From: a virus
Strand: one strand, 5' to 3'
DNA length: 64,000 nt
IMG/VR virus record: IMGVR_UViG_3300004481_000388
Span: 1 to 64,000 of that record
The stretch's first letter is position 1, and each line of letters starts with the position of its first letter. This document shows, one piece after another, positions 12,012 through 64,000 of this stretch. Made by a program: the position numbers and the translations under genes. The notes under the pieces are model-generated. The model made no database searches. It was not told the origin of the DNA and saw only the letters and a list, made by a program, of their open reading frames with translations.

Positions 12012-12045
12012 GTAGGAGATACAACGTATCATTTGTATCTCCTAC
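12012..12045. other. intergenic hairpin (12-bp perfect arms)
   Basis: GTAGGAGATACA-acgtatcatt-TGTATCTCCTAC, upstream of the ParB-like gene. Confidence 0.7.
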
Positions 12046-12101
12046 GTTAATGATCTTCGCTATAGGGAGATGGGAGGGGGAGATACGATATAGGAGAGGA
12101 A

Positions 12102-12872: not shown

Positions 12873-12968
12873 AATGTTACCTATTGTTACCTTTCAATTG
12901 TGCCCCCCGTTATAGTAGAGGCGGTTGTTGTTAGATGTGCCCCGTGACTAGGGCGAATTAGCGAAGTG

Positions 12969-12985
12969 TGTCAACTAAGTTTACG
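12969..12985 (-). repeat. 17-bp phage repeat, type A copy
   Basis: Minus strand CGTAAACTTAGTTGACA followed by CACTTC. Intergenic. Confidence 0.9.
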
Positions 12986-13093
12986 TATCACCCCCTTTGT
13001 AATACTTCCTTATAATCCACTTTGTACACAGGATGCTAGCTTCATAGATGATAATAGCTACTAACAAAATTAGTAGACTACTAACGAATGCCC

Positions 13094-14158
13094 TCACTTC
13101 TCACCCCCTTTCCCCCTCAACCTCTTCACCTTCTGCCTCATCCCCTCCACCCCGCTCCTCCCATACTTATCCTGATGCTCCAAGTAATCCTTAATACTCT
13201 TCCCCGCGAACTCCCCATGTTGATAGTACCCTTCCTTGTACATGTCGAACCACGTCCTCAACGCCTCTCCGTCTAATCGTGGCTTAGCAAACCAGTTAAC
13301 ATTAGGCGTCTCGGTGGGGTGTGGGGTGAAGTACATACGAAACTCTAACTTCTCCTGCGGCGTACCCTCTCCACTAACGTGCGAGGTAAGGTGAAATATT
13401 TCGCCCACAGCAGCGGGCGTATCCTTAATCAACGCCTTCCCTGCCGTAGCTGGGCCATAGATCGTAGCCCCTTCCTGATCCTCGCCCCTACTCTCTCTCG
13501 CTGTTATCAACCCTCGTGGTACTGGTAGGTTCGATAGGTCAGTAAACGTCTGTCTCGCTATGAACTGTGCTATAGTATAGTTCCCCCTCGTATAATTCGC
13601 AATCGTCTCGCCGTATGTCTTGAACCTCATCCCCCCGTCCTTCGGATCACCTGTTAAGTGCTTCCCTGTCCTCGACACTTCCTGCATGACTAAGTTACAT
13701 AGCGACGTGATACTATCCACCACGTACGCCCCCACCTCTTCCTCATCCTCATGAGAAAAGGGTAGCCATATAATCTCCCCTCCTCGTTCCCTCGGCCACA
13801 ACCCCCTCATCAGCTTACTCGCCATCGCCATCGCACTCTCCCCCTGCCCTACATATACCACGTCTATCAACCCGGCTTCCCGTGCATTCTCAACCGCCAC
13901 CGCTCCCCCTTCATCGCACGATATGTACCTAGTAATCTTCCCATACCTTTCTAGAATATAATCACAAAACTGTAACGCCTCCCACGTCTTCAACGCACCA
14001 CTAGGCCCATATAACATACTCCAATGCGCTTTCGAGTTACGTGGGATGTAGAGTTGCTTCTTCCCTACCCCCTCTCCCTCACTCGTTGTCTCTGTGGTAG
14101 TCTCGCCACCTCCTGTTACTTCCAACTTTAAATCATCGGCTGACAGTTTAATTGCCAA
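13094..14158 (-). CDS. RecA-like / AAA-type NTPase (Sak4-like recombination ATPase candidate)
   Basis: Walker A-like YGPSGALKT, Walker B-like AYVVDSITS. Lies in the replication-recombination module. Confidence 0.45.
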   Translation of the reverse strand: MAIKLSADDLKLEVTGGGETTTETTSEGEGVGKKQLYIPRNSKAHWSMLYGPSGALKTWEALQFCDYILERYGKITRYISCDEGGAVAVENAREAGLIDVVYVGQGESAMAMASKLMRGLWPRERGGEIIWLPFSHEDEEEVGAYVVDSITSLCNLVMQEVSRTGKHLTGDPKDGGMRFKTYGETIANYTRGNYTIAQFIARQTFTDLSNLPVPRGLITARESRGEDQEGATIYGPATAGKALIKDTPAAVGEIFHLTSHVSGEGTPQEKLEFRMYFTPHPTETPNVNWFAKPRLDGEALRTWFDMYKEGYYQHGEFAGKSIKDYLEHQDKYGRSGVEGMRQKVKRLRGKGGEK

Positions 14159-14633
14159 AGCTGCCTCCTTTCAAACCTAGCTTGTTTTGTGTTTTAGGTG
14201 AGGTGCTTAATGTTCTTTCTACACTCCAACCTGCTTTTATTCTATTGTGAATTATGTAGTCGGGTAGAGTTAATTCCTCTGCCCAAGCTGCCATACATTG
14301 AGTCTTGTTGTTAAAGGTAAGCAAAGTATTGTTACTACGATTCCTAGCCTGCTCCTGCTTAGTAGCCCATCTACAGTTTTCCTTACTATAATCTTTGGTA
14401 GTGTCTCTTCTATCCAAGGTATGATTTATAGAAGGTCTATCTCCCATATCTATGTGGAAATTAGCAAACTTATGCCACCTCTTACATACTCTAATACCTT
14501 TGGCCCCATAATAAGGGTAAGAGGTAGAATTTGGGTTGTAACATCTCATCATCATAGTATTCCAGCTACAATACTCTATAGTTCTACTCTTACCGTGAGT
14601 AGTAGCCGCTTGCCTCTTATTACTAATTGCCAT
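14148..14633 (-). CDS. homing-endonuclease-like DNA-binding protein (HNH/AP2-type block), paralog of 15307..16026
   Basis: HTLDRRDTTKDYSKENCRWATKQEQARN plus one KTQCMAAWAEEL helix-turn-helix repeat. Confidence 0.6.
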   Translation of the reverse strand: MAISNKRQAATTHGKSRTIEYCSWNTMMMRCYNPNSTSYPYYGAKGIRVCKRWHKFANFHIDMGDRPSINHTLDRRDTTKDYSKENCRWATKQEQARNRSNNTLLTFNNKTQCMAAWAEELTLPDYIIHNRIKAGWSVERTLSTSPKTQNKLGLKGGSFGN

Positions 14634-45716: not shown

Positions 45717-48700
45717 ATGAAACGTCAACTTAGTTTACACTTCCCCCTATTCCTTATACTTCTCATCTCTTCGCTTTTACTCTCTACTCCCTCCTTAGCA
45801 CAGTCAGTGGTTAAGTACCAAGACTACGCGTCTAAGGGTGGGGTGAGTGCAGTGGTGCAAGGAACCCCCTCCACCAACAAATTCCCGCAAGTGTTTCCAG
45901 GGTGCACTGTAACCGTATATCTAACAGGCACAACGACACTAGCTACGATATACACGAACTCGTCTCTAACCCCTAAAAGTAACCCTTTCACGGCTGATAG
46001 TGAGGGAAGAGTAGAGTTTTATATAGCGCCGGGTAGTTATGATATACGCTATAGTGGGACAGGGATAACTACACCATTTACTAGATCGGCGGTTAATATT
46101 GGGTCAGGCAGCGGAGGAGGGGGCAGTGGTGTAACTACTACACTATATAATCCTCTTCTATATACTTGCGTAGGAGATGGTGTTACAGATGATCGTAACT
46201 GTCTTAACACCCTTGTTAATACGACTATACAACCAGCAGGAGGAAGGCTACTCCTCTCTGCTACATTTCTCATAAACTCTAATCTCAGCATTCCAGCAAA
46301 CGTTCACATAGATGGGCAATCCGTGGGATACATTAAGGTAGCTACGGGCAAGACGCTGACTGTGCTGGGCAGTATGCCACGCTTCCCCTTGCAATATTTC
46401 ACGAACTGCGGGCCAAGTCTCGGCACCGTTGATTTCACTGGTAATTACAAAATCGTCGAAGTGTTTCCCGAATGGTTCGGCGCAGATGCGAGCCTGGCTG
46501 ACAGTGCAGGCTACACCACGAACTATCGGGCGCTTTATGCGGCGATTCATTCGGCGTTTGGTAATCGGGCATCCATATCTGCCGCGACTAATGCCGCGAC
46601 GGTGCAGTTCACCTACACGGGGGCGAAAATCTCTACGGGTGATACGATCCTGATTTCCGGGGCAACGGGGAATTGGGATAATGGTGGTAATACGATTAAC
46701 GGGAGTTGGACGGCTACTGCGACGGGGGATCACACCTTTACAATTCCGAGAGATTCCACCACGTTTGGCCCGCTCACGGGCACGGTCGTCGCACACACCA
46801 GAAAGAACGGCGTCAATACGCAGTTCAACCGCACGCTGGTGCTAAACGGCGAATATTCGATTAACGATGAAATCCCGCTCTATCACGTCCTGGGGTTCTC
46901 AATGCAGGGGGGGAACCAACTCAATCACGGCATCCGGCAGCGCGTCAATGACAAGCGGATATTCGCCGGGGAATCGGTTGCCTACGGAACTTTTAAAAAT
47001 CTGCGGTTCTCAACTTCAGGTACGTTATCTGGTGGGGGGTTACTAGAGATCAACTACGGCGCAACCCAGGGCGACGATCTCAGGCCACAGAATATCACTT
47101 TTCAGGATTGCGTCTTTGATGGGAACTCCTCGGCGCTTGTAGGGGTTTGGATTGCGAAGAGTGGAGGCGGCAGTCAGGGCGACAATATCCGCTTTCTCTA
47201 TTGCTATGGGCGTTCCTTCACGCACTCAGCTATATTACTAGGCGGAAATGGCATTGCCCCCCTGACAGGCTCCTCCTATGCAACCAATGCGATTCAAGTC
47301 ATTGTCGAAGGTGGAGATTATCAAAACAACCCTAAGTACGCACACGCCGGGTATGGCGGTAGCTTCATCATATCCAACGTTTCATACGAGAATCAGGTAC
47401 TAGGGTCGAATGGACGCCCAACGCAGACTGGGGCAGATGTTCACTGCGAAGGGAACTCCTTCCGTTGCAAACTCCTCAATTCCCGCTCTGAATCCTTGCG
47501 CGTCGTGGAGGGCGAGGTGGACATCGAAAATCTCCTCATGTCCTCTAACGGATGGTTGCAAAACTGGTACGACTCAAACGCTGCTACCACGCTCACTGGC
47601 ACCGAAGCCTACGTTGGGCAACTGGTCAGCGGCTCGAAATCGGGCGGGGATGGGAAAGTCTATCGCGTCACGAGAGCCGATAACGTCAACACCGGATACC
47701 GCACGATGACCTCGATCACATTGCCTAATGTCATTGGGGATTCCACTGGTACCTATACAGTCAACGAACTGGCGGGTTTAAAGATTTATGCCCAATTCCA
47801 GAGCAACCTTTTCGTCGCCTTCGCGGGCACAGTCGTATCCAACACCGCGACGACGATCACCGTAGACACCACAGGCAGTGCGTACACGCTCTCGGATTAC
47901 ACTGCCGGGAACACGAAATATATTGTCTATTACCAGCTACCTATCTGGGGCGGCGTAGCGAAGACCACAGCAACAGGGGGGAGTGGCACAGGCAGCGGCG
48001 CGACGATTACGAAAACGGGCGCAGGGTGGACGGTGAACGCCTTCACGGGCTGGCGCGTGTCTCTCCTGGGCAATATTAGTAGTCAAAAGGGAGCCTTACA
48101 ATGGGGCATCATCGCCTCCAATACTGCCGACACGATTACCCTTGATGCAACAGGGTGGCGCTGCGACTATCCGCTCGACTATCTCCATCCTGATTATCAA
48201 ATTGTTGCGGCGGATAACACCTCTGAGTTCTGCGTTGAGCCGAACTGGGGCACGACGACGACCAGCGGCACGCTGATTGACTTTGCCGCGTATGACTACT
48301 ATGCCATTGATGGGGCGAGTCCTGGCACGAATTATCATGTCGGCTACATAAAGAACTCGAACGTGGGCAGTGGGGCGATGGTGCGTACCCTGAGTACAGA
48401 CATTGACGGCTTACAGGTGTCTCGTGCGGATTGGAACCCTGCGGCGGGTCTTTGGGATGACGGATTCCATAGGCGTCATTGGAAGGGCATTGAGGTCATT
48501 CGAGAACGTGGGTTTCAAAAGCCTCTTCCCTGGGTGCCAACGCGCAACGGGTCAACCTCTCCGCTTGGCCCTACCCCGAAAGTCGTTACGTTTGGCACCG
48601 ACTTTATCACCTGGAACCGGGGACTCTACGGAGGTGGTTCAACGCTCACCGATCTAGGGATTGGCCCCGGTGATGGAGCCAACGCGAATAGCACTCTCAA

Positions 48701-49586
48701 CAAAGACATCCTCGCGTTCGCTGGTGGGATGTTCGGCAAACGTAGTGCGCGCGGCACCAATCAAACGGGACTTGATCTCAATCTCGCTCCTGGCGCAGGT
48801 ACGGGTTCAGCCAACGGAGGCAACCTTAACTTCTACTACTTCCCCGCAGGTTCTTCTGGCGTCACCGAGAACACTCGCGCCAATGCTTGGAGAATATCAG
48901 GCTCGGCGGGGCATCTCTTAGGGGTCACGGACAACACCTTCGACATCGGTGCCAACGGTGCCACCAGACCCCGCACAGGTTACTTCGGGACATCTATCGT
49001 CAGTCCTATCGGCACCTTCGCTACATCCATCTCTAGTCCCAAGATCACGAATCTCACCACCAATGGCCTTATCACGACCTCTAGCGGCGACGGAACCCTT
49101 GGGATCACAGTCCCAGCCACGGGCATTCTTACGTTCCTCGCAACCTCCTCTAGCGCGAACCTGGCTTCTGCCCTGACCGACGAAACCGGCACCGGAGCAA
49201 CAGTGTTCGCGGGAAGTCCGACCTTCACGGGCACGACTACGATGGCAACAGCCGCCCCAACAAACATAGTCTCAACCCCTAGTGCCCCGGCTCAACTTAC
49301 AGCCAACACAAACGACTGGGCACCTACTCTTACCCTAATCATCCGTGCCTCTAGTGATGCTGCTAGGAACGTGACTGGGCTGGTAGCGGGGACAAGTGGG
49401 CAAGTCATTTATCTATGGAACGTGGGGGCACAGAACATCGTCCTCATTCATGAGTCTGCTTCTTCTACTACCGCTAATAGGTTCCTCACATCCACTGGGG
49501 TAGACCTAACCCTAGCTGCTAATAAATGTGCGTTGATGTTCTACGACGGCACTACAGCAAGATGGAGAGTGGCGTTGTTGCCCTAA
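45717..49586 (+). CDS. large tail fibre/tailspike-like protein with a pectate-lyase-type beta-helix region and an N-terminal Sec-type signal peptide
   Basis: 1289 aa. N-terminus MKRQLSLHFPLFLILLISSLLLSTPSLAQS. CVGDGVTDDRNC beta-helix signature. Fibre-type motif LASALTDETGTGATVFAGSPTFTG. Confidence 0.7.
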   Translation: MKRQLSLHFPLFLILLISSLLLSTPSLAQSVVKYQDYASKGGVSAVVQGTPSTNKFPQVFPGCTVTVYLTGTTTLATIYTNSSLTPKSNPFTADSEGRVEFYIAPGSYDIRYSGTGITTPFTRSAVNIGSGSGGGGSGVTTTLYNPLLYTCVGDGVTDDRNCLNTLVNTTIQPAGGRLLLSATFLINSNLSIPANVHIDGQSVGYIKVATGKTLTVLGSMPRFPLQYFTNCGPSLGTVDFTGNYKIVEVFPEWFGADASLADSAGYTTNYRALYAAIHSAFGNRASISAATNAATVQFTYTGAKISTGDTILISGATGNWDNGGNTINGSWTATATGDHTFTIPRDSTTFGPLTGTVVAHTRKNGVNTQFNRTLVLNGEYSINDEIPLYHVLGFSMQGGNQLNHGIRQRVNDKRIFAGESVAYGTFKNLRFSTSGTLSGGGLLEINYGATQGDDLRPQNITFQDCVFDGNSSALVGVWIAKSGGGSQGDNIRFLYCYGRSFTHSAILLGGNGIAPLTGSSYATNAIQVIVEGGDYQNNPKYAHAGYGGSFIISNVSYENQVLGSNGRPTQTGADVHCEGNSFRCKLLNSRSESLRVVEGEVDIENLLMSSNGWLQNWYDSNAATTLTGTEAYVGQLVSGSKSGGDGKVYRVTRADNVNTGYRTMTSITLPNVIGDSTGTYTVNELAGLKIYAQFQSNLFVAFAGTVVSNTATTITVDTTGSAYTLSDYTAGNTKYIVYYQLPIWGGVAKTTATGGSGTGSGATITKTGAGWTVNAFTGWRVSLLGNISSQKGALQWGIIASNTADTITLDATGWRCDYPLDYLHPDYQIVAADNTSEFCVEPNWGTTTTSGTLIDFAAYDYYAIDGASPGTNYHVGYIKNSNVGSGAMVRTLSTDIDGLQVSRADWNPAAGLWDDGFHRRHWKGIEVIRERGFQKPLPWVPTRNGSTSPLGPTPKVVTFGTDFITWNRGLYGGGSTLTDLGIGPGDGANANSTLNKDILAFAGGMFGKRSARGTNQTGLDLNLAPGAGTGSANGGNLNFYYFPAGSSGVTENTRANAWRISGSAGHLLGVTDNTFDIGANGATRPRTGYFGTSIVSPIGTFATSISSPKITNLTTNGLITTSSGDGTLGITVPATGILTFLATSSSANLASALTDETGTGATVFAGSPTFTGTTTMATAAPTNIVSTPSAPAQLTANTNDWAPTLTLIIRASSDAARNVTGLVAGTSGQVIYLWNVGAQNIVLIHESASSTTANRFLTSTGVDLTLAANKCALMFYDGTTARWRVALLP
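45723..45739 (+). repeat. 17-bp phage repeat with swapped half-sites, inside the first codons of the fibre gene
   Basis: CGTCAACTTAGTTTACA followed by CTTCC. Encodes RQLSLHF of the signal peptide. Confidence 0.75.
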
Positions 49587-49587
49587 A

Positions 49588-49604
49588 CGTAAACTTAGTT
49601 GACA
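49588..49604 (+). repeat. 17-bp phage repeat, type A copy
   Basis: CGTAAACTTAGTTGACA followed by TAT, 20 nt before ATG 49625. Confidence 0.9.
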
Positions 49605-49624
49605 TATTGCACTAAAGGAGAACC

Positions 49625-51361
49625 ATGAAGAGATTTATATTAACTATTATCTTACTCCCACTTTTACTCATCCTTCTACTTACTACGTCTTTATGGGCAC
49701 AAGGTAGTTCTTCGTCTCACCCTGTTCGTAAAGTAACGTCATTACCTGCTACGTGTACTGCGGTGGGTAGTAGTAATAGTAGTGATTCTGTACTCTACCA
49801 GGGTAGGCTTTATCTATGCACAAGTACGAATACATGGACAGCCGTATCAACAGGCGCAATGGGGATCACTAGCTTGGGAGGGCAGACAGGCGCGACTCAG
49901 ACCTTTGCAAATGATACAAATGTCACTATCTCAAGTAGCGGCGATACTCATACGTTGGGGTGGGCTGGAACACTAGCAGCGGGCAGGCTGAACAGTAATG
50001 TTGTTCAGGCAATCACCAATGATACTAATATTCAAGGCTCAATTACCGCACAGAATTTGACACTAGCTTGGGCTGGAACACTCGCCAAAGCCCGACAGCA
50101 CACAGCAACCGTATATAACGATGCGGCCAATGTCTGGTCAACTGGGTTGCAGGACTTTAATGCAGCTACCATAAAGGTACCTATTAGTATTGGGTATGCC
50201 CCAACGGTAAGCGGCTTGTTTGGCTATGACTCCACGGCGAATGTGTTCACGGGCGGTGCGAATGGGACGAATCGCATCTTCGTGACTCGTGATGCGACAG
50301 AAGCCTTGGCGAACAAAACCCTGGGAGCGACCACCTTCACAGGGAAGCTCTCTGGCTCAGGAGCAGCCCTGGAATTGGATGATGTGAACGGCGTGCAGGC
50401 GTCAGGCGGGATTCGGATGGGTTCAGCGGCCAATAATCACACAAGTCTTGGTTGGGTAGCGGGGCTTATAGGTGTACGAACAACGGGAAAATATGGTTTC
50501 ACATCCTCAGCTACAGATGCCACTGGTACGCAGGATACCTCTTGGTGTCGCAATGCTGCTGGGGTTCACGAATTTAATAGAGGGGCTTGTGGTTCAAATT
50601 TAGGGTTAAAAGTAACCGCTACAGCAAGCGGAGTAAATAACCTCAACATCGCTAGTGCAGCTACTACTGGACACCCTACAATCACAGCAGAGGGCAGTGA
50701 TACTAATATCAACGTGAATCTAGTTCCTAAAGGCTCAGGCGTTGGGCAGGTTAACGGGTCAACAATAGTCACTTCTGACAACACGATCACGAAAACCAAT
50801 CTAACCCTCGACGCCGAAGGGACGGGTAATGTACTCGCGATCCCCGTGAAATTCGGCGTGGCGGCGGCGGGGTGCAATGGAACCACGGCAGGGAACGTCT
50901 TGAACCTGCCCACGTCCGCCGCGCCAACGGCGGCGTGTATCGGCACCACAGTCACGACAGGCTTTTTGGATTACGCTGATGGTTCCACCACAGCCGCGCA
51001 CGGGATTTTTACTCTGCCTAGTGATTGGACTTCGACAGGCGGGGTAGACATTACGCTCTACTACACAGGATCAACCAGTTCCACGAATAACTTTCGGGCG
51101 CAGGTGTCCACGGGATGCGTGGCGGACGGTGAAGATTTAACCGCCCCAACATTCAACACGGCCAGCGCCTCTAACACGGCTGGCCCAACCACAGCAGCGC
51201 AACGCAAGAGCGTGACGTTTACAGGCGTAGCTGTAACGAACTGCGCAGCCTCAGAAACCATGTACGTGAAAATTGAGCGTGTAGGTGCCGATGCAGGCGA
51301 TGCAAATACAGGGAATTTCCGGCTGTTAGAGATGATTGTCACGATTCGGAGGTCAATGTAA
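49625..51361 (+). CDS. second fibre-like protein with an N-terminal Sec-type signal peptide
   Basis: 578 aa. N-terminus MKRFILTIILLPLLLILLLTTSLWAQGSS. G/T/S/A-rich fibre-like composition. Confidence 0.65.
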   Translation: MKRFILTIILLPLLLILLLTTSLWAQGSSSSHPVRKVTSLPATCTAVGSSNSSDSVLYQGRLYLCTSTNTWTAVSTGAMGITSLGGQTGATQTFANDTNVTISSSGDTHTLGWAGTLAAGRLNSNVVQAITNDTNIQGSITAQNLTLAWAGTLAKARQHTATVYNDAANVWSTGLQDFNAATIKVPISIGYAPTVSGLFGYDSTANVFTGGANGTNRIFVTRDATEALANKTLGATTFTGKLSGSGAALELDDVNGVQASGGIRMGSAANNHTSLGWVAGLIGVRTTGKYGFTSSATDATGTQDTSWCRNAAGVHEFNRGACGSNLGLKVTATASGVNNLNIASAATTGHPTITAEGSDTNINVNLVPKGSGVGQVNGSTIVTSDNTITKTNLTLDAEGTGNVLAIPVKFGVAAAGCNGTTAGNVLNLPTSAAPTAACIGTTVTTGFLDYADGSTTAAHGIFTLPSDWTSTGGVDITLYYTGSTSSTNNFRAQVSTGCVADGEDLTAPTFNTASASNTAGPTTAAQRKSVTFTGVAVTNCAASETMYVKIERVGADAGDANTGNFRLLEMIVTIRRSM

Positions 51362-52038
51362 TGCTACGACGAGAGTTTATCAAATCTGCTGCGGCAGGAT
51401 TATTCCTGCCTACATATTCCTGGGGGCAGGATCGCTATGGCGCGAGCATCGGGCGACGCCCGCAGGTAGGGACAGGACTTACGGTGGCCTTCGATGCTGC
51501 GACGAGCAGCACCACCACATCTTTCAGCCATACCTGTACCGGGTCGAACCGACTTTTAATTCTATTTATCAAAACCAAAGACCTGTCAGGCGGTATATCA
51601 GCAACTTACAATAGCGTTAGTTTTAGCGCCAGCGGCAACACTGCTGATATTCAAGGCACAGATTTATCTTTATACCGGGTTTATCTGATGAGCCTAGTAG
51701 CGCCAGCGAGCGGCACCAATACCGTAGCAGTGACCGGCACCGGACTGGTATCGTTTATCACTGCCAGCTTTACGGACGTGCATCAAACTACGGCGCTTGG
51801 AACCATATCAGCACAAACCGCCACCGCTACTGTATCTCCAAGTGGGTACACTTCGGGGGATATGATTATCGGGGCTTCCATAGACACTAGCACAGGAACT
51901 TTGAGTTCCAGCAATACCGCAATCGGTACCTCGACCTCAGGTTTGCTTGGTGGCCGCCGCAGCGATTCCGGTAGCTTAACCTGGACAGGGCACGCAGATG
52001 AAAAAGCAGTTATTGGTGTAGTGGTTAAGCACGCATAG
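51361..52038 (+). CDS. hypothetical protein with a twin-arginine (Tat) signal
   Basis: 225 aa. N-terminus MLRREFIKSAAAGLFLPTYSWGQ. TAATG overlap with the upstream stop. GC-rich composition. Confidence 0.6.
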   Translation: MLRREFIKSAAAGLFLPTYSWGQDRYGASIGRRPQVGTGLTVAFDAATSSTTTSFSHTCTGSNRLLILFIKTKDLSGGISATYNSVSFSASGNTADIQGTDLSLYRVYLMSLVAPASGTNTVAVTGTGLVSFITASFTDVHQTTALGTISAQTATATVSPSGYTSGDMIIGASIDTSTGTLSSSNTAIGTSTSGLLGGRRSDSGSLTWTGHADEKAVIGVVVKHA

Positions 52039-52173
52039 GCAGACGACCGCCTGTCTCACTGTAACGCCCAAAGCCCGCTGATTCCGGCGGGAAGCCAAGC
52101 GCGACTGCCTACGTTGCTATCACGCACCTACTCTTTGCCCCATCAACCTAGCCCTTATAGGACATACACATAT

Positions 52174-52407
52174 ATGAGCAAACAAATTACTTTTCTAATA
52201 GGCGCACTAGGAGTTATCGCAGGAGTGTTGGATAAATTCTCTGACACCTTTGCTGGCTACCCCACAATATCAAAATTCCTTCCCGTAGCTATCGCCATAA
52301 CCCTAGCACTTGTGGCATACTATAACCTCTACTGGAACCCTGATGGCACCCATGCTTCTGAAGCCTATAAGCCAAAAGGTAAGGATGACGAGAATAACGA
52401 GGAGTAA
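52174..52407 (+). CDS. two-TM small membrane protein (holin-like topology)
   Basis: Part of ORF 52114..52407, starting at ATG 52174. TM helices ITFLIGALGVIAGVL and FLPVAIAITLALVAYYNLYW, with a charged C-terminus. Confidence 0.45.
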   Translation: MSKQITFLIGALGVIAGVLDKFSDTFAGYPTISKFLPVAIAITLALVAYYNLYWNPDGTHASEAYKPKGKDDENNEE

Positions 52408-52425
52408 ACGTAAACCAAGTTGACA
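52403..52425 (+). repeat. 17-bp phage repeat, type A variant, with a duplicated GTAAAC
   Basis: AGTAAAC-GTAAACCAAGTTGACA followed by CTTC. The first TAA is the stop codon of the holin-like gene. Confidence 0.85.
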
Positions 52426-52460
52426 CTTCTACTAACACGTAGAAATAAGGAGTCCCAAAT

Positions 52461-53117
52461 ATGTTAGATCGTAGAACTTTTCTTTTAGGTACTATTCCTA
52501 TTACCTTAGCCTTTGTCGCACCTTTATGTGACAAGAGGGGTGGAGTTAAGCCTAGCGAACAACTCACAGCCGCTCGTGCATTTGCTATATTCCCTGTAGC
52601 TCTAGGCGCAGCGAGTGAGGTCATTGAGGTATTGGAGGGGGATAAGGATTGGACAGCCACACAAGCTAGTAAGGCTAATAGGCTGTTAGATGGTGTGTTG
52701 GTGAAGATGGACACGGCTTTTTCTCTCATTACAAGTGGGAAGTTTGATGTTGATACAGTGAGACAACTACTCACAAGTATCCTGGATACGCTTGAGCAGG
52801 GGGTGAAGGATGGAACGTTAGGGGTGAAGAACCCCACTAAGCAACTCTACTTCTCCTCTCTCATTACAGCAGCTAGATCAGTTATCACAAGTATCTATAC
52901 GGTAGCTGATGCACTACAGCCATTACCAAAGGAGATGGAGACGGCACGGGCGCAGGAATCCCTCACGGCAGGGGGTGTGGCGGCTATCGTATCTATCATA
53001 GCCGCAGCGACGGTTGAGATTAAAATTACTCGTGATGAAACGAACGTGAAAGAGTTACAACGTAGGACTAAGGAGAAAAGTGAGGGTGTGCACGCGGTGT
53101 TGAGAAGTCGGTTTTAA
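52461..53117 (+). CDS. hypothetical exported protein (Tat-type signal, possible lipoprotein)
   Basis: 218 aa. N-terminus MLDRRTFLLGTIPITLAFVAPLCDK. Confidence 0.55.
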   Translation: MLDRRTFLLGTIPITLAFVAPLCDKRGGVKPSEQLTAARAFAIFPVALGAASEVIEVLEGDKDWTATQASKANRLLDGVLVKMDTAFSLITSGKFDVDTVRQLLTSILDTLEQGVKDGTLGVKNPTKQLYFSSLITAARSVITSIYTVADALQPLPKEMETARAQESLTAGGVAAIVSIIAAATVEIKITRDETNVKELQRRTKEKSEGVHAVLRSRF

Positions 53118-53285: not shown

Positions 53286-54719
53286 ATGCAAGGCTACACA
53301 TTCACTCAAACAGTCTCCCAAGTACGTGCCTTACTAGCGGAACGCCTTAATGACCCTTCAATGACTTTCTTCTCTAGTGAGGAATTGACGTTCTATCTAC
53401 AAGAGGCATTAGAGACGTTCAATACACACGCACGCTACTTTCGTACCTTCTCTTCCCTCTCTGTAGCTGCTAATACACAATTCACGTCTCTCCAACTCGC
53501 TAGTTCCTTGGACGAGACTAACGCGCCCTTTATTCCACTAGACAACTACCAATTCTCAGGGCAGCAAGTTCTCAAGTCCCTCCTCTTACATTTAATGGAG
53601 TCACAATCTACCTCTACCATCCCCACACGCACTGGGCACATCTCTGATAACCAGCTTATCTCATGCCTAAACCAAGCGTGTGACAGATTCGCCCAAGAAT
53701 CCCAAGCGTTCATCTATCGTACTGCTACCATATCTACAGTAGCAGGGGTAAGGCGTGTCACTCTCCCTGCTGACGTACACGACGTTCAGCGTATCGAACT
53801 CACTACCATTGACGCTAACGCTCCCATATACATAGTACAGCGGATTACTAAGGACGAGTTAGACAAACTCCTACCCTCTCTCAACACACAAGTAGGGAGG
53901 CCACGTTACTTTACCGTCTCCAATACCCCGGTGCGTAACCTCGATCTCTACCCCACGCCTGATGATACCTACCCCTTAGGTATCTATAGCGTAAACAATC
54001 TAACACACCTAACCCCATATACAACAGGGCTATTCACAGCCGATGAAACCCTTACCTATCCCCGTCAGTGGTGGCCTGCTGTGAAGTTCCTAACCCTCCA
54101 CCTTATATACTCCTTTGACGGCCCACTAAAACACCCTCAACTCTCTGACTACTGCCGTCAAAGATACGAACAATACCTCCTTCTATCGCGCTCGTGGCAC
54201 CCTATCGAACACGCTTATCACAACGGCGCACTCCTCGACGTATGTGGGGTGGAGGAACTGGACTTCCTAGACCCACGGTGGCGCAACCCTACAAACTCCA
54301 CTAGCCCCGTCAAAAAACTCGCGCTACTAGGGCAGAACCTTGTCTTCTTACGTCGCAAGAACGGTGCAACCCCAATCACCCTAACCTTTGACCTAATCCC
54401 CCTAGCTCCCTCACTTACAGCTAACGATCAAATGTTCCCAGTCGGGGAAGACTATCTCTCCTACGTCTTAGACTATGCACAACACATCGCCACTATAAAG
54501 ATGGGAGGTGTGGAGTTCACTACCACCCTACCCCTCTATCAAAACTTCCTTCGTGGATGTGCGAGAGTTAACGACAAGCTCCAACTTGGCGCACTCAGGA
54601 AGGTGATGAATAGTGAGGTAGCGGTAGGACAAAAGCCCCGTAGAACAGATGGACGTGAGGGGTTAGTTCCCACAACCACGTCACAGGAGCAAGATAGCCC
54701 TCAATACGCCCCTCAATAG
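53286..54719 (+). CDS. hypothetical virion/tail-module protein
   Basis: 477-aa ORF. Confidence 0.6.
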   Translation: MQGYTFTQTVSQVRALLAERLNDPSMTFFSSEELTFYLQEALETFNTHARYFRTFSSLSVAANTQFTSLQLASSLDETNAPFIPLDNYQFSGQQVLKSLLLHLMESQSTSTIPTRTGHISDNQLISCLNQACDRFAQESQAFIYRTATISTVAGVRRVTLPADVHDVQRIELTTIDANAPIYIVQRITKDELDKLLPSLNTQVGRPRYFTVSNTPVRNLDLYPTPDDTYPLGIYSVNNLTHLTPYTTGLFTADETLTYPRQWWPAVKFLTLHLIYSFDGPLKHPQLSDYCRQRYEQYLLLSRSWHPIEHAYHNGALLDVCGVEELDFLDPRWRNPTNSTSPVKKLALLGQNLVFLRRKNGATPITLTFDLIPLAPSLTANDQMFPVGEDYLSYVLDYAQHIATIKMGGVEFTTTLPLYQNFLRGCARVNDKLQLGALRKVMNSEVAVGQKPRRTDGREGLVPTTTSQEQDSPQYAPQ

Positions 54720-54740: not shown

Positions 54741-54757
54741 TGTAAACTAGGTTGACA
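54741..54757 (+). repeat. 17-bp phage repeat, type A copy
   Basis: TGTAAACTAGGTTGACA, only 3 nt before ATG 54761 with no SD in between. Confidence 0.9.
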
Positions 54758-54760
54758 CTT

Positions 54761-57700
54761 ATGGCACAGTTTAACGATACTCCTCCTCAAAGTTACCGTT
54801 TTGGTGTTGGTGGAATGCAAGTCTCCCGTGCTCTCGAATTACTAGAGGAGCATAAGATAGCTTACGGGCGTAATATTCGTAACTACAAAACTGGGGAGAT
54901 ACGCCCCCGTCCAGGGTTAGGCACTTCTCTTTTCAACGGTGCATTAGGAACCACTACCATCCATACGCTACGACGGTTTAATGATCCTACGAGTAACGCC
55001 TACTTTTACATCATCGGCGCGGGAGATAAACTCTATACGCTAAATGAATCTGCTATCCCAGGTGCAGAGTTAGCTAGTGGGTTTAGTGGCTTGCCCTTAC
55101 AACTAGCTTTCATACGCCCCTATCGTAGTGCGTATAACTGGGCGTACATCTCCGACTCTGCTCGTATGGTAAAGATTGGCCCAGCACAGCAGCTACAAAA
55201 CTGGTCTATCCAACCCCTCACTACCCCCCTGAGCGTTCTCTTGGGCACGTTAAACTTCAAAACCATCTCTGATTTTGACAGTACGGGGTCATGGGCGAAT
55301 ACAGGTACAGCGGGGGCGCTAAGCGTGTCTACTCGCATCTCTTTCACCATCCCAGCCTCGTCTATCCTATACGACGTGGGCTCGACAGGGTGGGCGAATA
55401 TAATCCCCACAACCCTAGATGATAACTTCCAACCCGGTGTCTCACTCGTTTATAACAGCGGAGGAGGTACAGAAGAGCGTGCACTTATCTCTCAGGTGTT
55501 TAAGGCTAGTGGCTCGACTACCGTAAAAGCGATACGATATGACTCAGGATCAACGGGACGATGTATTATCCAACTCGAAAACCCGTATGACATGGTTCTC
55601 GAAAAGGACGGTACGGTTAAGCTCACTACCTCAGGAGGCGCGTCTAGTGAGTTCTGCCGGATTATAGACGTAATCTCATCTCCCATAAATAAACCAGCGA
55701 TAATTGTGTCAACCACGTTGACGCATACTACCTCATCTACGTGTGAGGCTGTACGCTCCTATCGCACATACCTACAAAACACGCACGCGGCGGGGGAAAC
55801 AGTAGCAGGGAGTTATATGAGGTCTACAGTGAGTAGTGGGACTGGGTATATTACGCTCACTACCTCTCTCGACCTCTCAACCTCTTCTACGCCCGCTGTC
55901 TCCCCCTTTTGTGACCGTGACACAATACACTTATCTATTAGGGTAAGTAACCCTGCGAATATTACTGAAATCATTCTACAGTTAGACGTTGATAGGGCGA
56001 CTAATGACTTCACGAAGAACTACTATCAATATACGATTCAGCCAGCCGCGTTAACAACAAGCGCGACGGCACTAACGGCAGCACAGGTGGATTTACAAAG
56101 AGAGCAGATACTTGTAGGGTATAGGGTACCTGATAACTACTCATCCTATTACGATTACGATAGGAGTTATGGGTATGATGGGAATAATTACTACTCAGGG
56201 TCGCCTGGGCAAGTAGACTACTCTCTTCGCTCCCCCCAAGGCGCGTATCAGGAACCAGTCTACGAATACGGCACGATCTCTAACCCATCAGGTGTGAGTG
56301 ACGCGGCTACGGGAAGTAGTCAGTGGACGGAACTTGTAGTGCGCCTATCGGACTTCAAGCGTATTGGTAGTGACACGTCTCGTGGGTGGAAGGATGTAGC
56401 AGCGTTACAGGTTAAGGTGGTGTGTACTGCGAGTGTAGACGTGGATATAGACTCGTGGTATATCGGGGGAACGGGGCAACTCAATAACGCGAATATAGGG
56501 CAACCTATTAACTACGTAGCGACGTGCTATAACGACCTCACTGGCGATGAGTCCCTACCCTGCCCACCACTTCGTAGCGGGTTGAAGGTGAATCTCGCTA
56601 CTGCCACCCTCACTATTACACAATCACTAGACACACAAGTAACGAGGTATAAGTTCTATCGTATTGGAGGGCTACTTAACCAATTTACATACATAGGGAG
56701 CGTACCTCATAAGAACGCATCTTCCACCACTACGTTCATAGATAACTTCCCTGATGAGGACGTAGTAGCTAACCCCCCACTGTCTCGTGACAATTACCCC
56801 GTCTTTCCCCAACTAGACATTCCTCGTAGTGGCACAGCTACCATCGTAGGTAACATCCTCACTAGAACAGGAGGCACAGACACTTTCAACACTTCATGGG
56901 CGGCAGGCTCACGTATTACCATTACAGACGAATCAACTGGCCTTTCATTCGACACCAACCTATACTCCTCCCCTATCTCCACTACTCTCGTGGAACTAGA
57001 AGAGAGCTTACCATTCACATCTGCTACGTCTCTGAAATGGAAAATAAATGAGCCTGTCTTACTTGGGCAACCTGTGCGTGCGATCTTTGGCCCCTACACC
57101 TCAGGGCTAGACCTCCCTGTTATATTCGGCCTAGGGTGTATGTATCAGGCAGGTACGCTGTTTTGGACGAACAAGGGAATGCCTGGAAGCGCGTCTCTCA
57201 ATAACCAAGTAGAGGTAACTACGCCCGAAGAACCACTAATAGGTGGCTTTTTGTATGATACACAAGCATTCGTCTTCTCCACCGAACGACTCTTTCATAT
57301 CACGCAAGTTCCTACCGAGGATGGGTCGCTGATGTTCCAGCCGAACGAGGTGGCTAATTCTAAGGGGCTTATCTCCCCTTCATGTGTATCGGTAGGTCAA
57401 GTAGCAGTGTTCGTAGGGAAGGATGGAGTTTACGTAACTACCGGGGGGCAACCTCGTAGTATCACAGACCGTGATCTCTACACCATATTCCCACATGACT
57501 CACAAGCGGGTGTTGCTAGTGGCCCACAGAATGAACTCCTCCCACTAGACCTCTCTCTAGCCTCATCGTTCCATCTCACTCATCATAACGACTTCTTCTA
57601 CCTATCGTACATAAACACGTCTGCCCAGCGCCGCATCCTCGTGTTCGACGTATCCAAAATAATCAGTGGGCTGGCTACGACGGATGATGTAGGGGGATGG

Positions 57701-58804
57701 GTGAGTATTGACGACTACACTCCACAAGTTAACTTCCTCTATTCCGAAGAAGGTGTCACTAACCCACTACTCCTAGCCGCTGGGAACGACGGGAAGGTGT
57801 ATGTACTAAACGCTTCTACTGACGTTGGTGGCGCGTTCACTTGGGAGGTAGAGTCACGAGGGTTCAACCTTGGCGCTCCTGACACCATCAAAACCTTATC
57901 AGCAGTGGGTGTGAAGGCTAAACCTAACGGCGCTACTATCACTACTAGAGTACGTATCAACAACCTCACTACTACGACTTCTCTGGGTACGTTCACAGGC
58001 ACGGACGATGCCTGGTACAAGGTATCTACTGACACAACTGATGGAGATATAGTATGTGATTCTTACTCCATCCGTCTAAGTGGAACCTCACACGCTACAC
58101 AAGTCCCTACCCTCCTGGCTCTCTCCTTTGGTGTAGAGTTAGGTGGGGAAGTTACGGGGGTAGCGTGGACTCAGAGGGATAACTTAGGGGATAGTGGGGC
58201 GAAATGGGTACAAGGGGTAGAGGTTGAGGCGAATACTAATGGCGTGAATAAACAATACACGATCATCTATGACGATAATCAAACAGGCCCTACGATCACA
58301 CTTAACCACGCTTCACGGTCAATCAAGCCCTACACCTTCACGCCCTTTATCGCTCATACCATACGTCTCCAACCCCTCACTGCCACAAAGATAGAGTTGT
58401 ATGATATGCGCTGGATATGGGAACCGGAACCAGATTTAGCACGTAATTGGGTGCCACAACCCACTTCCTTCGACATCCCCGGCTGGCATCATATACGCTC
58501 GTGCTTCATCGCTCTACGTAGCACCTCTACCGTAACTCTCACAATCGTAGTAAAGGGGGATAACGACTCCTCCCGTACATATACCTACGACATTCCCTCC
58601 ACTTCGGGCGAACATTTACGTGTATATCTCCCGCTTAACTCCATAAAGGGTACTATCACCTCCCTCTCTCTCTCTTCCTCTACTGGCTTTCGTGTGTATC
58701 AAAAGGATATAGAGTTTCACGTAAAACCTTGGGGAAGCAACTCTTCGTATGGTATAATTAAGCCCTTCGGACAAATTAGTAGGATTAAGGGAGCAACTAT
58801 TTAA
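54761..58804 (+). CDS. very large virion structural protein (tail/baseplate-like)
   Basis: Part of ORF 54752..58804, about 1347 aa, T/S/G-rich. No enzymatic motif recognised. Confidence 0.6.
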   Translation: MAQFNDTPPQSYRFGVGGMQVSRALELLEEHKIAYGRNIRNYKTGEIRPRPGLGTSLFNGALGTTTIHTLRRFNDPTSNAYFYIIGAGDKLYTLNESAIPGAELASGFSGLPLQLAFIRPYRSAYNWAYISDSARMVKIGPAQQLQNWSIQPLTTPLSVLLGTLNFKTISDFDSTGSWANTGTAGALSVSTRISFTIPASSILYDVGSTGWANIIPTTLDDNFQPGVSLVYNSGGGTEERALISQVFKASGSTTVKAIRYDSGSTGRCIIQLENPYDMVLEKDGTVKLTTSGGASSEFCRIIDVISSPINKPAIIVSTTLTHTTSSTCEAVRSYRTYLQNTHAAGETVAGSYMRSTVSSGTGYITLTTSLDLSTSSTPAVSPFCDRDTIHLSIRVSNPANITEIILQLDVDRATNDFTKNYYQYTIQPAALTTSATALTAAQVDLQREQILVGYRVPDNYSSYYDYDRSYGYDGNNYYSGSPGQVDYSLRSPQGAYQEPVYEYGTISNPSGVSDAATGSSQWTELVVRLSDFKRIGSDTSRGWKDVAALQVKVVCTASVDVDIDSWYIGGTGQLNNANIGQPINYVATCYNDLTGDESLPCPPLRSGLKVNLATATLTITQSLDTQVTRYKFYRIGGLLNQFTYIGSVPHKNASSTTTFIDNFPDEDVVANPPLSRDNYPVFPQLDIPRSGTATIVGNILTRTGGTDTFNTSWAAGSRITITDESTGLSFDTNLYSSPISTTLVELEESLPFTSATSLKWKINEPVLLGQPVRAIFGPYTSGLDLPVIFGLGCMYQAGTLFWTNKGMPGSASLNNQVEVTTPEEPLIGGFLYDTQAFVFSTERLFHITQVPTEDGSLMFQPNEVANSKGLISPSCVSVGQVAVFVGKDGVYVTTGGQPRSITDRDLYTIFPHDSQAGVASGPQNELLPLDLSLASSFHLTHHNDFFYLSYINTSAQRRILVFDVSKIISGLATTDDVGGWVSIDDYTPQVNFLYSEEGVTNPLLLAAGNDGKVYVLNASTDVGGAFTWEVESRGFNLGAPDTIKTLSAVGVKAKPNGATITTRVRINNLTTTTSLGTFTGTDDAWYKVSTDTTDGDIVCDSYSIRLSGTSHATQVPTLLALSFGVELGGEVTGVAWTQRDNLGDSGAKWVQGVEVEANTNGVNKQYTIIYDDNQTGPTITLNHASRSIKPYTFTPFIAHTIRLQPLTATKIELYDMRWIWEPEPDLARNWVPQPTSFDIPGWHHIRSCFIALRSTSTVTLTIVVKGDNDSSRTYTYDIPSTSGEHLRVYLPLNSIKGTITSLSLSSSTGFRVYQKDIEFHVKPWGSNSSYGIIKPFGQISRIKGATI

Positions 58805-62921: not shown

Positions 62922-64000
62922 ATGACTCCACAAACATCCACTCCCGCTCGCCCCCGTCGTACAGCTAACCCTAAGGTATATACGCTTGACCCTCAAGCCG
63001 CATTGGACTTACAAGAGGGGGATGAGGTTGATCTTGAGAAGTTCACGGACGATCTTATTTCCCAATCTCCTATGACGAAGGAGATGGGGCAGGATAAGGC
63101 GCGTAGGTTATTTCGTGCGATGTTTGAGACGGAGAGTAATAACGACCCTAACGTGCGGGATAGCCAAAAGGGGGCGAGGGGGATGGAACAGGTGATGGAG
63201 TCTCTAGCTGATGAGTACGGGCTAGATAGGAACGATCCAGTTCAACGCCGCTTCATCGCCATAGACTATCTCTCGCGGGGGTGGAAGTACGCATCTCGTT
63301 ACACCGAAGACCCGATTGAGCGGGCAGGGGTGGCCGTGAGTTTTTATCACGGGGGAGAGGGTGCGCTCAAGAACCTTATCAAGCAAGATGGGTTACTATC
63401 GCGTACAAGTGATGGTGGAATTACGACGAATGACCATGTTATGAAGGTGTTGGGGGAGTGGGATAGGTTAGAGGGAGAGGCGTTAGGGGAGATGTCAGGG
63501 GAGGAGACGGATGATTCTAACTACATCATGAAGGGGGATGAGCCTATTCTAAAGATGGAAGGATTAGCTGACTCCACTATTCCTATCTCGAAAATGGAGG
63601 GCACAGACTCCCCACTCGTAGCCTCACCTCTCACTCCCGAAGAAGTACGCATGAGGAAGGAGACGAATCGTGGAATACAAGTACGGAATTTATGGCTCAA
63701 GGCCGACAACCCCAACGCCTACCCCGACGCACAGCAATTAACCTCCCTCATCCGTCGCACCTTTCCTGTGGAGAAGCGCGCGGCGTTTGACCGTGCTCTA
63801 CAGACATATTATGAAGAGGGAGTGGAGACATGGGCACACACTTCCCCTGAAGCAGTAGCACGGCATTCTAAGATCACCAAAGATGAGCAAGGTAACGATC
63901 AACTCTTAGTTAACGCCGTAGTCTATCCTGATTTCGATAAGGTGGTGGATACGTTCTACTCTCAGGGGGATGAGGCAGGGAGGGAGATGATACGTGCGAA
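62922..64000 (+). CDS. internal virion protein with an N-terminal lytic transglycosylase (SLT) domain; truncated by the window edge
   Basis: Absent from the ORF track because it has no stop. Translated by hand from ATG 62922, open to nt 64000. SLT motifs FETES, GARGMEQVM, SFYHGGEG. Confidence 0.7.
   Translation, partial: MTPQTSTPARPRRTANPKVYTLDPQAALDLQEGDEVDLEKFTDDLISQSPMTKEMGQDKARRLFRAMFETESNNDPNVRDSQKGARGMEQVMESLADEYGLDRNDPVQRRFIAIDYLSRGWKYASRYTEDPIERAGVAVSFYHGGEGALKNLIKQDGLLSRTSDGGITTNDHVMKVLGEWDRLEGEALGEMSGEETDDSNYIMKGDEPILKMEGLADSTIPISKMEGTDSPLVASPLTPEEVRMRKETNRGIQVRNLWLKADNPNAYPDAQQLTSLIRRTFPVEKRAAFDRALQTYYEEGVETWAHTSPEAVARHSKITKDEQGNDQLLVNAVVYPDFDKVVDTFYSQGDEAGREMIRA

Follow-up and report, generated by a model that had tools for sequence, protein, structure and literature searches.

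Predicted export signals on a tailspike and neighbouring tail-type proteins in a family of tailed phages

Results

Four neighbouring late genes begin with predicted export signals

The DNA studied here, called the window throughout, is the 64,000-nucleotide stretch at positions 1-64,000 of the IMG/VR record IMGVR_UViG_3300004481_000388, for which about 80 open reading frames (ORFs) were listed. Its late module contains four genes, abbreviated F1, F2, T1 and T2, whose products start with signal-peptide-type N-termini. Three of them (F1, F2 and T1) are tail-type proteins, and F1 is a tailspike orthologue that carries its particle-docking domain directly behind the signal. That these are genuine export signals on tail-type proteins is stated here with high confidence; that the proteins mature in the periplasm and join the particle at lysis is proposed tentatively. 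The four genes are the following, a slash marking the predicted cut here and below.

45717..49586, plus strand: F1, 1289 aa, N-terminus MKRQLSLHFPLFLILLISSLLLSTPSLA/QS
49625..51361, plus strand: F2, 578 aa, N-terminus MKRFILTIILLPLLLILLLTTSLWA/QG
51361..52038, plus strand: T1, 225 aa, N-terminus MLRREFIKSAAAGLFLPTYSWG/QD
52461..53117, plus strand: T2, 218 aa, N-terminus MLDRRTFLLGTIPITLAFVAPLC

The coordinates and N-termini that a first-pass annotation had given for these ORFs were matched exactly when the sequence was read again, and the two motifs it had singled out, GDGVTDD and LASALTDETGTGATVF, were both located in the 1289-aa F1. Its claim that export signals are present on fibre or spike proteins, where they are unexpected, was upheld. 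Signals were called with our own heuristic of hydrophobicity, charge and the residues at -3 and -1, together with comparative evidence, and from these we infer cleavage and localization. Among the about 80 ORFs a signal-peptide-type N-terminus (a charged n-region followed by an uncharged hydrophobic stretch) was found only in F1, F2, T1 and T2; the remaining hydrophobic matches in the list were three small membrane proteins. The four signal genes lie inside five consecutive genes, an arrangement with a chance of about 2.4e-4. F1 and F2 show the Sec pattern, an MKR n-region being followed by about 20 hydrophobic residues and SLA/Q in F1 and by about 19 hydrophobic residues and LWA/Q in F2. The pattern RR.F[LIVM] was present within the first 15 residues of 2 of the 297 six-frame ORFs of the window, which were exactly T1 and T2. 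Set against the twin-arginine (Tat) motif S/T-R-R-x-F-L-K, T1 reads L-R-R-E-F-I-K and T2 reads D-R-R-T-F-L-L, and on this comparison both carry the motif.

The signals are conserved. The first 74 codons of F2 were compared with those of L001, a relative of the window that is 94-96% identical in DNA, and 11 synonymous and 0 non-synonymous differences were counted, 4 of the synonymous ones within the signal; this pattern points to purifying selection on the F2 signal. Signals are also kept in divergent homologues, namely in about half of the F2 matches, in 116 of the 150 best F1 matches and in the T2 homologues. The Tat label that had been given to T1 and T2 held only in part: the RR motifs are good, but no TAT-signal model was matched and the orthologues of both proteins use Sec-type signals. 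Because T1 has a Tat-type signal here, a Sec-type signal in L001 and none elsewhere, and T2 has an RR signal here and Sec-type signals in its homologues, it seems to be export that is the selected property and not the signal sequence. The comparisons thus indicate that export is conserved and the pathway is not. With T1 counted, the exported tail-type proteins number three (F1, F2 and T1) and not two, whereas T2 stands apart as a protein with a spanin-like layout, on which a signal is expected and ordinary.

A tailspike docking domain directly follows the F1 signal

The layout of F1 is as follows.

45717..49586, plus strand: F1, consisting of signal peptide, docking domain, Gly-rich linker, beta-helix-like region (GDGVTDD) and C-terminal tail-fibre tip
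45717..45800, plus strand: Sec-type signal peptide of F1, 28 aa, with MKR n-region, long h-region and c-region SLA/Q
45801..46100, plus strand: particle-docking ('head-binding') domain of F1, residues 29-128, recognized by profile, AlphaFold2 (AF2) plus Foldseek, and tblastn

Residues 1-700 of F1 were searched against 1.84 billion cluster representatives, which gave 3284 matches, and the best 150 were scored. A signal-like peptide was found at the start of 116 of these best 150 representatives, with a conserved domain of about 100 residues directly after it (consensus ..K.QGYAE.GG...FP.CTVTVY..GT.TLATIYSD..GTPK.NPFTA...G...FY...G.YDI.FSGTGI.TPFT). A minority of the family proteins have a Met exactly at the start of this domain. 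When the docking-domain profile was compared with the PDB it matched the N-terminal part of the tailspike in the Pan3 tail complex (9vyg, E 6e-4) and the 'tailspike head-binding domain' of Pam1 (7eeq, E 7e-3). The AF2 model of the domain had a predicted local distance difference test (pLDDT) score of 94.9, and the top three Foldseek matches were 9vyg and 7eeq chains with probability 1.00 and template modelling (TM) scores of 0.54-0.58, the root mean square deviation being 2.4-2.6 Å for 9vyg. A tblastn search with a signal-less family member found the N-termini of annotated tailspikes and exopolysaccharide (EPS) depolymerases in Serratia, Erwinia, Escherichia, Klebsiella and Pantoea phages; gp12 of the cultured phage Tunturi_1 was matched by tblastn as well. 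Taken together, the sequence and fold comparisons indicate that F1 is a genuine orthologue of tailspikes to which a signal has been added at the front.

The position of the predicted cut agrees with this picture. Cut F1 would start QSVVKYQDY (K[IL]QGW in the family), in register with the starts MALIKVQGI and MQKIQGW of signal-less members, so the signal looks like a pure add-on whose removal recreates an ordinary N-terminus. The docking domain is conserved alike in signal-bearing and signal-less forms, with about 50-70% identity across representatives of 50%-identity clusters. At the other end, the C-terminal 100 aa of F1 match proteins that are annotated as tail fibres in Bradyrhizobium and spring-water phages. 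The body gave no beta-helix or pectate lyase match in Pfam, PHROG or NCBIfam, although GDGVTDD is present; some homologues carry PF12708 or PF13229.

Signal-bearing and signal-less spikes share one genomic slot

An alignment of the docking domain was scanned over IMG/VR and retrieved 54 viral contigs, many of them 57-68 kb long, and the backbone of related contigs was compared with the window proteins by blastp. IMG/VR scans with F2 alone and with the adaptor alone gave no match. The shared backbone consists of terminase, portal, capsid protein, homologues of the window genes at 42828 and 43904, and then adaptor and nozzle. In the related contigs the docking-domain gene lies just before the adaptor gene, with the conserved head-proximal gene on its other side, or between adaptor and nozzle. 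The gene in this slot has a signal in about 17-20 contigs (e.g. L019, L021, L022, L027, L036 and L039) and lacks one in about 7-9 (e.g. L023, L026, L031, L033, L034, L042 and L063). Contig L044 has both forms, a signal-bearing and a signal-less spike gene (9926-12055 and 12059-14215) that are direct neighbours and lie immediately upstream of the adaptor gene. The trait seems to switch between close relatives, since the capsid proteins of L022 (signal) and L023 (no signal) have nearly identical N-termini. In about two thirds of the family, expressed as a share of 30 related viral contigs, no docking-domain spike other than the signal-bearing one was seen, and the same holds for the window and Tunturi_1. 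The guanine plus cytosine (GC) content of signal and signal-less loci is equal (0.54 versus 0.55), and an explanation of signal presence by host GC was rejected on these values.

Neighbouring accessory tail proteins change along with the signal. In phages of the signal type, each 20-kb structural locus contains 2-5 signal-bearing ORFs that are 150 aa or longer, whereas five of the seven signal-less-type loci carry none. A pair formed by a T1-like gene and a beta-helix gene has signals on both members in L012 and on neither in L014, and the beta-helix protein of L012 has an extra C-x5-C relative to the L014 form.

Cysteines follow the signal as well. In a hidden Markov model (HMM) alignment of 110 docking domains, Cys was present at column 10 in 37 of the 93 signal-bearing sequences, and in 36 of these 37 it was accompanied by Cys at column 35. 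The complete pair was thus found in 36/93 signal-bearing but in 0/16 signal-less domains (Fisher p=0.0011). The C-terminal domain of F2 contains four near-invariant cysteines, and all 21 homologues that have this four-Cys domain carry a signal, compared with 45 of the 102 that are without it (p=7e-7). Signals were also present on 18 of 20 proteins with the motif LPxxC...C..NxW. We read these associations as a sign that a group of interacting tail proteins has changed compartment in a coordinated way.

The same arrangement occurs in a phage that is in culture. The gp12 of Tunturi_1 (1190 aa, annotated as 'hypothetical protein') starts with MKKFIQLALLFILPAAASA/QT, which is followed by the same docking domain with its Cys pair. 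Sec signals, mostly ending A/Q, were also found on gp13, gp14 ('tail spike protein'), gp16 and gp17 ('virion structural protein') of this phage; in gp14 and gp17 beta-helix-like sequence comes straight after the signal and a docking domain is absent. The paper describing the Tunturi phages does not mention 'signal peptide' or 'mass spectrometry'.

Two side observations were made on these loci. In L011 (6626-12648), which has an HK97-type capsid and Phage_tail_S and represents a different phage type, four signal-bearing proteins (1049, 260, 103 and 240 aa) stand among head-tail connector genes, a homologue of T1 being included; by this evidence the export of late proteins would extend beyond the podovirus family with the SU10 adaptor. 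In L018/L020 (9731-14119), L030 (9743-14728) and L035 (9860-15514) the longest spike ORF begins well upstream of the signal peptide, and gene callers that take the first start would hide the spike signals in these contigs.

F2 and T1 form an exchangeable unit

The features of this pair of genes are listed below.

49625..51361, plus strand: F2, with Sec signal at 49625-49699 (LWA/QG), LPATC...C..NTW motif, repeat region and four-Cys C-terminal domain
51361..52038, plus strand: T1, 225 aa, all-beta, with twin-arginine-type signal at 51361-51429 (LRREFIK...SWG/Q) and disordered linker to about residue 40
50878..52064, plus strand: exchanged cassette made up of the F2 C-terminal tip domain and the whole T1 gene, from the DNA comparison of window and L001

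Homologues of F2 that share more than its central repeats nearly all start with Sec signals ending A/Q or G/Q. The mature domain of T1 begins near residue 41, and its homologues either have Sec-type signals (P0125, P0126 and P0128) or start directly with MAIAFDA. The L001 orthologue of T1 has the Sec signal MKKFFFLFALLLAQSSLA/QP in place of the RR signal, and the distant relative L002 has a near-identical RR signal, MLRREFIKTMTAAGASLFLPEYSWGQ, on an unrelated lectin-like domain. Structure prediction for 51361..52038, which the first-pass annotation had proposed, returned the fold of a minor tail protein. The AF2 model (pLDDT 78) gave 54 BFVD matches at E<=1e-3, the best at 1.6e-9, with TM scores of about 0.6-0.7, and many of these are the 'minor tail protein' of Mycobacterium or Gordonia phages. 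Neither the profile nor the model of T1 found a significant match in the PDB. On this modelling evidence T1 is assigned a phage minor-tail-protein fold. A role of T1 as an exported endolysin was considered and is unlikely, because its homologues are encoded in tail modules and it shares the fold of minor tail proteins. No family was found for F1, F2, T1, T2 or the holin-like gene described below in Pfam, PHROG or NCBIfam.

Along the comparison of the window with L001, the sole break in the 94-96% identity is at 50878-52064 (L001 4499-5740), inside which there is no nucleotide similarity. The swap of this 1.2-kb cassette also switches the signal of T1, which is Tat-type in the window and Sec-type in L001. 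The joint exchange suggests that T1 works with the F2 tip.

T2 is probably a lysis protein

T2 adjoins a small membrane protein gene.

52174..52407, plus strand: holin-like protein, 77 aa; its two hydrophobic stretches peak at 2.03 and 2.17, and its C-terminus KPKGKDDENNEE is acidic/basic; 98.7% identical in L001
52461..53117, plus strand: T2, with RR-containing signal, Cys23, periplasmic domain (helical by eye), C-terminal segment 167-183 and basic tail

The holin-like two-membrane-span gene that had been noted within the cluster was recognized again by its two hydrophobic stretches and charged C-terminus, but it has no family match. The T2 homologues P0138, P0139 and P0140 have a conserved Cys after Sec-type lipoprotein signals, the RR being absent in P0138 and P0139, and they share a strongly conserved periplasmic domain and the C-terminal segment with basic tail. 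The lipobox reads TVAC in P0138 and FTAC in P0140 and is atypical in the window (APLC) and in P0139 (APSC). The C-terminal segment of T2 (residues 167-183) is rich in Ala and Gly, with a mean Kyte-Doolittle value of 1.96. Comparison of T2 with described spanin families in PHROG, Pfam and NCBIfam gave no match. Since T2 is lipoprotein-like, has a C-terminal hydrophobic segment and adjoins the holin-like gene, its signal is regarded as ordinary, and T2 is probably a lysis protein, a spanin-like component.

The lysis cassette of Tunturi_1 lies in the equivalent place, between the spikes and the adaptor. An endolysin family was not detected in the window, where the sole muralytic domain is an SLT domain in the truncated last ORF (62922-64000), which looks like an internal virion (ejection) protein. 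The endolysin may be encoded outside the window, in about 5 kb of the contig, or may be novel. As a separate observation, an unrelated siphovirus-like contig (L013, 10001-11080, P0140) has the T2-type domain within one ORF of 359 aa. The domain is joined in frame to an upstream region in which several stretches are hydrophobic and may span the membrane, and translation from an internal Met would yield a perfect lipoprotein signal. P0140 is either a holin-spanin fusion or a gene-calling artefact.

Genome layout and host

The window is a divergent tailed-phage genome with two arms. The left arm (minus strand, 1 to about 27 kb) carries replication functions, among which are a family A DNA polymerase, a uracil-DNA glycosylase (UDG)-like protein, a dUTPase, an intein-containing PIF1-type helicase and a PD-(D/E)XK nuclease. 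A primase-like protein, the probable large terminase, the portal and the major capsid protein come first on the right arm (plus strand, from about 29 kb). The F1-T2 region follows, and after it an SU10-type adaptor, a nozzle-like 1350-aa protein and internal proteins that are T7 gp14-like or contain SLT. The adaptor and nozzle genes are as follows.

53286..54719, plus strand: adaptor of the SU10_adaptor family (Pfam PF24175, E 1.4e-18), with homologues in the Tunturi phages and most related loci
54752..58804, plus strand: nozzle-like virion structural protein, 1350 aa (PHROG 3287 'virion structural protein'), homologous to Tunturi_1 gp31

In related contigs, too, the nozzle-like gene stays beside that of the adaptor. 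The left arm has a strongly negative GC skew, which falls as low as -0.48; from about 28 kb the skew is positive and reaches +0.53 at 30-32 kb, and the switch near 26-29 kb fits two divergently transcribed arms; the intergenic region at about 27.2-28.9 kb may hold an origin or early promoters. The gene of the PIF1-type helicase (6646-9354, minus strand) is split by an intein with a LAGLIDADG homing endonuclease, its Pfam matches being PIF1, Intein_splicing, LAGLIDADG_3 and Hom_end.

Among cultured phages, the closest are Tunturi_1 and Tunturi_2, podoviruses of Acidobacteriota with genomes of 63 kb. A trimmed alignment of the F2 C-terminal domain was searched against genome collections and gave seven matches; four are in Acidobacteria metagenome-assembled genomes (MAGs), including both that are on contigs longer than 200 kb, and F2-type C-terminal domains were also found on small Bdellovibrionales MAG contigs. 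Shine-Dalgarno sites (AAGGAG or GGAGG) precede F2, T1 and T2. The predicted signal peptidase I sites of F1 (SLA/Q), F2 (LWA/Q) and T1 (SWG/Q) have Gln at +1, as do those of the L001 orthologue of T1, of many homologues and of gp12, gp13, gp16 and gp17 of Tunturi_1. Nearly all such sites in this phage, its relatives and Tunturi_1 expose a +1 Gln as A/Q or G/Q (window 45798-45803, 49697-49702 and 51427-51432; L072, which is Tunturi_1, 10371-10440 and 13940-14005; L010 3743-3810 and 4192-4260). This 'Q-rule' has been described as Bacteroidetes-specific (PMC5837995), and signal-bearing proteins that follow it were noted in Porphyromonas phages (PMC10367356). A Bacteroidota host deduced from the Q-rule is nevertheless unsupported, because the cultured relatives infect Acidobacteriota, the MAG matches are mostly Acidobacteria and Shine-Dalgarno sites are used. 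The Q-rule may extend to Acidobacteriota, or these phages may have a mixed host range.

Discussion

Relation to known systems

F1 resembles the podovirus tailspikes of Pam1 (7EEQ), Pan3 (9VYG), Serratia phage MTx, Erwinia phage Cronus and Escherichia coli phage ECO1230-10 in its N-domain, which matches by profile, fold and tblastn, and also in its beta-helix-like body, fibre tip and adaptor/nozzle neighbours. It differs from them in that the three structure chains are signal-free and align from about residue 20 of the chain, whereas the F1 family is mostly signal-bearing and often has the Cys pair. Two bacterial systems can be likened to F1 by architecture alone. WceF of Pantoea stewartii is a chromosomal, Tat-exported EPS-cleaving enzyme whose P22-like head domain is needed for solubility (PMC7949094); its export signal, head-like N-domain and trimeric beta-helix follow the layout of F1, and it is a tailspike fold that is exported. 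WceF, however, is encoded in a chromosomal EPS biosynthesis cluster and has no virion, whereas F1 occupies a tail slot of a lytic-type phage and has signal-less orthologues in sister phages. The MAT fibres of Bdellovibrio are signal-bearing, phage-fibre-like adhesins on the surface of the predator, with a conserved beta-rich N-domain of about 130 aa, a long trimeric shaft and swappable tips (PMC10769870); their N-domain is reported to have no PDB homologue, whereas that of F1 matches phage head-binding domains. Late-region genes with Sec or lipoprotein signals are represented by lambda Lom and Bor, phi80 and N15 Cor, T5 Llp and the Porphyromonas phage proteins (PMC10367356), but these are small accessory membrane proteins or proteins of unknown function and not orthologues of spike, fibre or minor tail proteins.

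The two other parts of the cluster have their own counterparts. T2 resembles the unimolecular spanin of the T1 gp11 type in its putative lipoprotein-type signal with a conserved Cys, its C-terminal hydrophobic segment and the two-membrane-span holin-like gene upstream, and is set apart from it by a periplasmic part of about 140 aa, the APLC lipobox, the RR n-region, the lack of a spanin-family match and the lack of an adjoining endolysin gene. The joint swap of the F2 tip and T1 as a 1.2-kb unit between phages that are about 95% identical resembles T4 gp37-gp38, Mu S-U and P2 H-G, which are cassettes of a fibre tip and a downstream adhesin or chaperone. Unlike in those, both F2 and T1 carry export signals, and T1 has a beta-sandwich minor-tail fold that is not a known Tfa or gp38 fold. 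Export signals are known in phages from endolysins, spanins, coat proteins of filamentous phages and moron or exclusion proteins. Our literature search found no signal peptides described on tailspike, fibre or minor tail orthologues of tailed phages.

A proposed route through the periplasm

Sequence and comparison support the export of F1 and F2 through Sec, and of T1 through Tat in this phage and through Sec in its close relative. They also support a cut by signal peptidase I at A/Q or G/Q, which leaves an N-terminus in register with the signal-less orthologues. For the later steps we propose that F1, F2 and T1 would fold and trimerise in the periplasm, where the conserved cysteine pairs could form disulfides, and that spike-less particles would be built in the cytoplasm. 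T2 and the 77-aa holin-like protein, whose architecture resembles that of lysis proteins, would act as lysis machinery. Once holin and muralytic enzyme have opened the inner membrane and the wall, the particles would meet the mature spikes of the periplasm inside a still intact outer membrane; the docking domain of F1 would bind the adaptor or nozzle, after which the spanin would release the phage. Before lysis the periplasmic pool of spikes may also act as free enzyme on envelope polysaccharide. An attachment step is included because the sole docking-domain protein is signal-bearing in most members of the family and its domain is as conserved as in signal-less phages. Late addition of spikes is biochemically feasible, as P22 heads take up purified tailspikes in vitro. 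Export, periplasmic maturation and docking at lysis together make up the best explanation we can give, with a probability that we would put at or a little below an even chance. The wider statement, that soil podoviruses of about 57-68 kb, Tunturi_1 and Tunturi_2 included, export their spikes, their fibres and their accessory tail proteins, which become disulfide-bonded and are attached only during lysis, is offered with somewhat more reserve.

Several points weigh against this route. T1 and T2 matched no Pfam or NCBIfam family at E<=0.1, TAT-signal models being included by assumption, which is a weak negative as short models are easily lost to the HMMER filters. The lipobox of T2 is atypical and its C-terminal segment is, by its sequence, only moderately hydrophobic. 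The lysis cassette as seen is incomplete, without an endolysin in the window. The difference in signal between L022 and L023 indicates that the signal is not essential for this tail design, and the retention of a head-binding domain does not by itself prove docking. Dilution at lysis makes late docking inefficient unless it takes place before the outer membrane breaks. Tailed phages are not known to add tail parts outside the cytoplasm.

Alternative explanations

The four explanations listed by the first-pass annotation were all reasonable. The main alternative, which we consider less probable than the proposed route, is that the signal-bearing proteins are exported and never join the particle, and that they serve as free periplasmic or secreted enzymes or binders, the phage counterpart of WceF. 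They could possibly trim nascent EPS, capsule or O-antigen, which would let progeny escape without re-adsorbing to debris, or block superinfection, with the docking domain retained for trimer stability. WceF offers the precedent of a signal, a head-like domain and a beta-helix in a free EPS-cleaving enzyme whose head domain serves solubility. Beta-helix-like sequence directly behind the signal, with no docking domain, in gp14 and gp17 of Tunturi_1 agrees with such a use, the side-by-side forms of L044 fit one free and one virion copy, and the close relatives L023 and L042 manage without signals; moron-type export genes in tail modules are well established (lambda lom, phi80 cor and T5 llp). 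However, the virions of about two thirds of the family, of the window and of Tunturi_1 would then be without a docking-domain spike. Moreover, the docking domain is equally conserved in signal forms, the gene has stayed in precisely the same structural position, between those of adaptor and nozzle, and Sec or Tat alone reaches only the periplasm of a diderm, no outer-membrane secretion signal having been seen. Free-enzyme use and virion docking could coexist.

That the N-terminal stretches are not cleaved signals at all is improbable. In that case they would be inner-membrane anchors, or would be ignored by Sec and Tat late in infection so that assembly is cytoplasmic. The h-region of F1 (about 20 residues) is nearer to an anchor than to a typical signal, T2 is without a good site for signal peptidase I or II, and no TAT-signal model was matched. 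Yet for F1, F2 and T1 the uncleaved anchors that had been suggested earlier are opposed by canonical c-regions, with small -3 and -1 residues exactly at the boundary where signal-less orthologues start with their initiator Met. Positive n-regions put the bulk of the protein outside, the cysteine pairs are specific to signal-bearing copies, Sec and Tat signals are swapped on orthologous mature domains, and the signals are under purifying selection. The boundary itself could hint at two products per gene, a long exported form and a short form from an internal start that alone enters virions, since a GTG stands in frame in F1, two codons past the predicted cut, and signal-less orthologues begin exactly there. 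An in-frame ATG, GTG or TTG near the boundary was found in only 7 of 23 signal-type genes, though, and none of the 23 has a Shine-Dalgarno-like motif upstream of it, even though F2, T1 and T2 themselves have AAGGAG or GGAGG; F2 has no candidate start in codons 20-45. A signal-less isoform of this kind is unsupported, 0/23 genes having a start together with the motif, and we give the reading very little weight. Hardly any is left for the view that bacterial cell-surface fibre genes, like those of the Bdellovibrio MAT adhesins, were captured by or mis-binned with phage DNA and serve the cell or lysogen. MAT fibres do combine a signal, a conserved beta-rich N-domain, a trimeric fibre and a variable tip, and F2-type C-terminal domains occur on large Acidobacteria and small Bdellovibrionales MAG contigs. 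But the window, 54 viral contigs and the cultured lytic Tunturi phages all have these genes embedded in an uninterrupted phage structural module, and no integrase was noticed in the window. Capture of modules from host cell-surface proteins, also suggested by the first-pass annotation, is likewise opposed by the tail-gene slot and by the docking domain directly after the F1 signal, which is that of a phage tailspike.

Implications

In textbooks, every step of tailed-phage assembly takes place in the cytoplasm, and no assembly pathway described for tailed phages explains spikes and fibres that probably leave it. The chance is substantial that the export signals on these tailspikes and fibres reflect a new assembly route. 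The trait is common: 116 of the 150 best cluster representatives show it, as do about two thirds of 30 related viral contigs. For annotation, signal-bearing 'hypothetical proteins' in late modules may be spikes, which is also relevant to the mining of depolymerases, and for host prediction a +1 Gln occurs outside Bacteroidota. With Tunturi_1, Tunturi_2 and their host in culture, the question is directly testable. If attachment at lysis is true, it would give tailed-phage assembly its first extracytoplasmic step and offer a way to make oxidatively stabilised receptor-binding proteins. Either these phages would obtain their receptor-binding proteins from the periplasm, with maturation coupled to lysis and disulfide-stabilised spikes suited to harsh soils, or many of them would divert their sole docking-competent spike to a free envelope-modifying enzyme, and both outcomes would be new for tailed phages.

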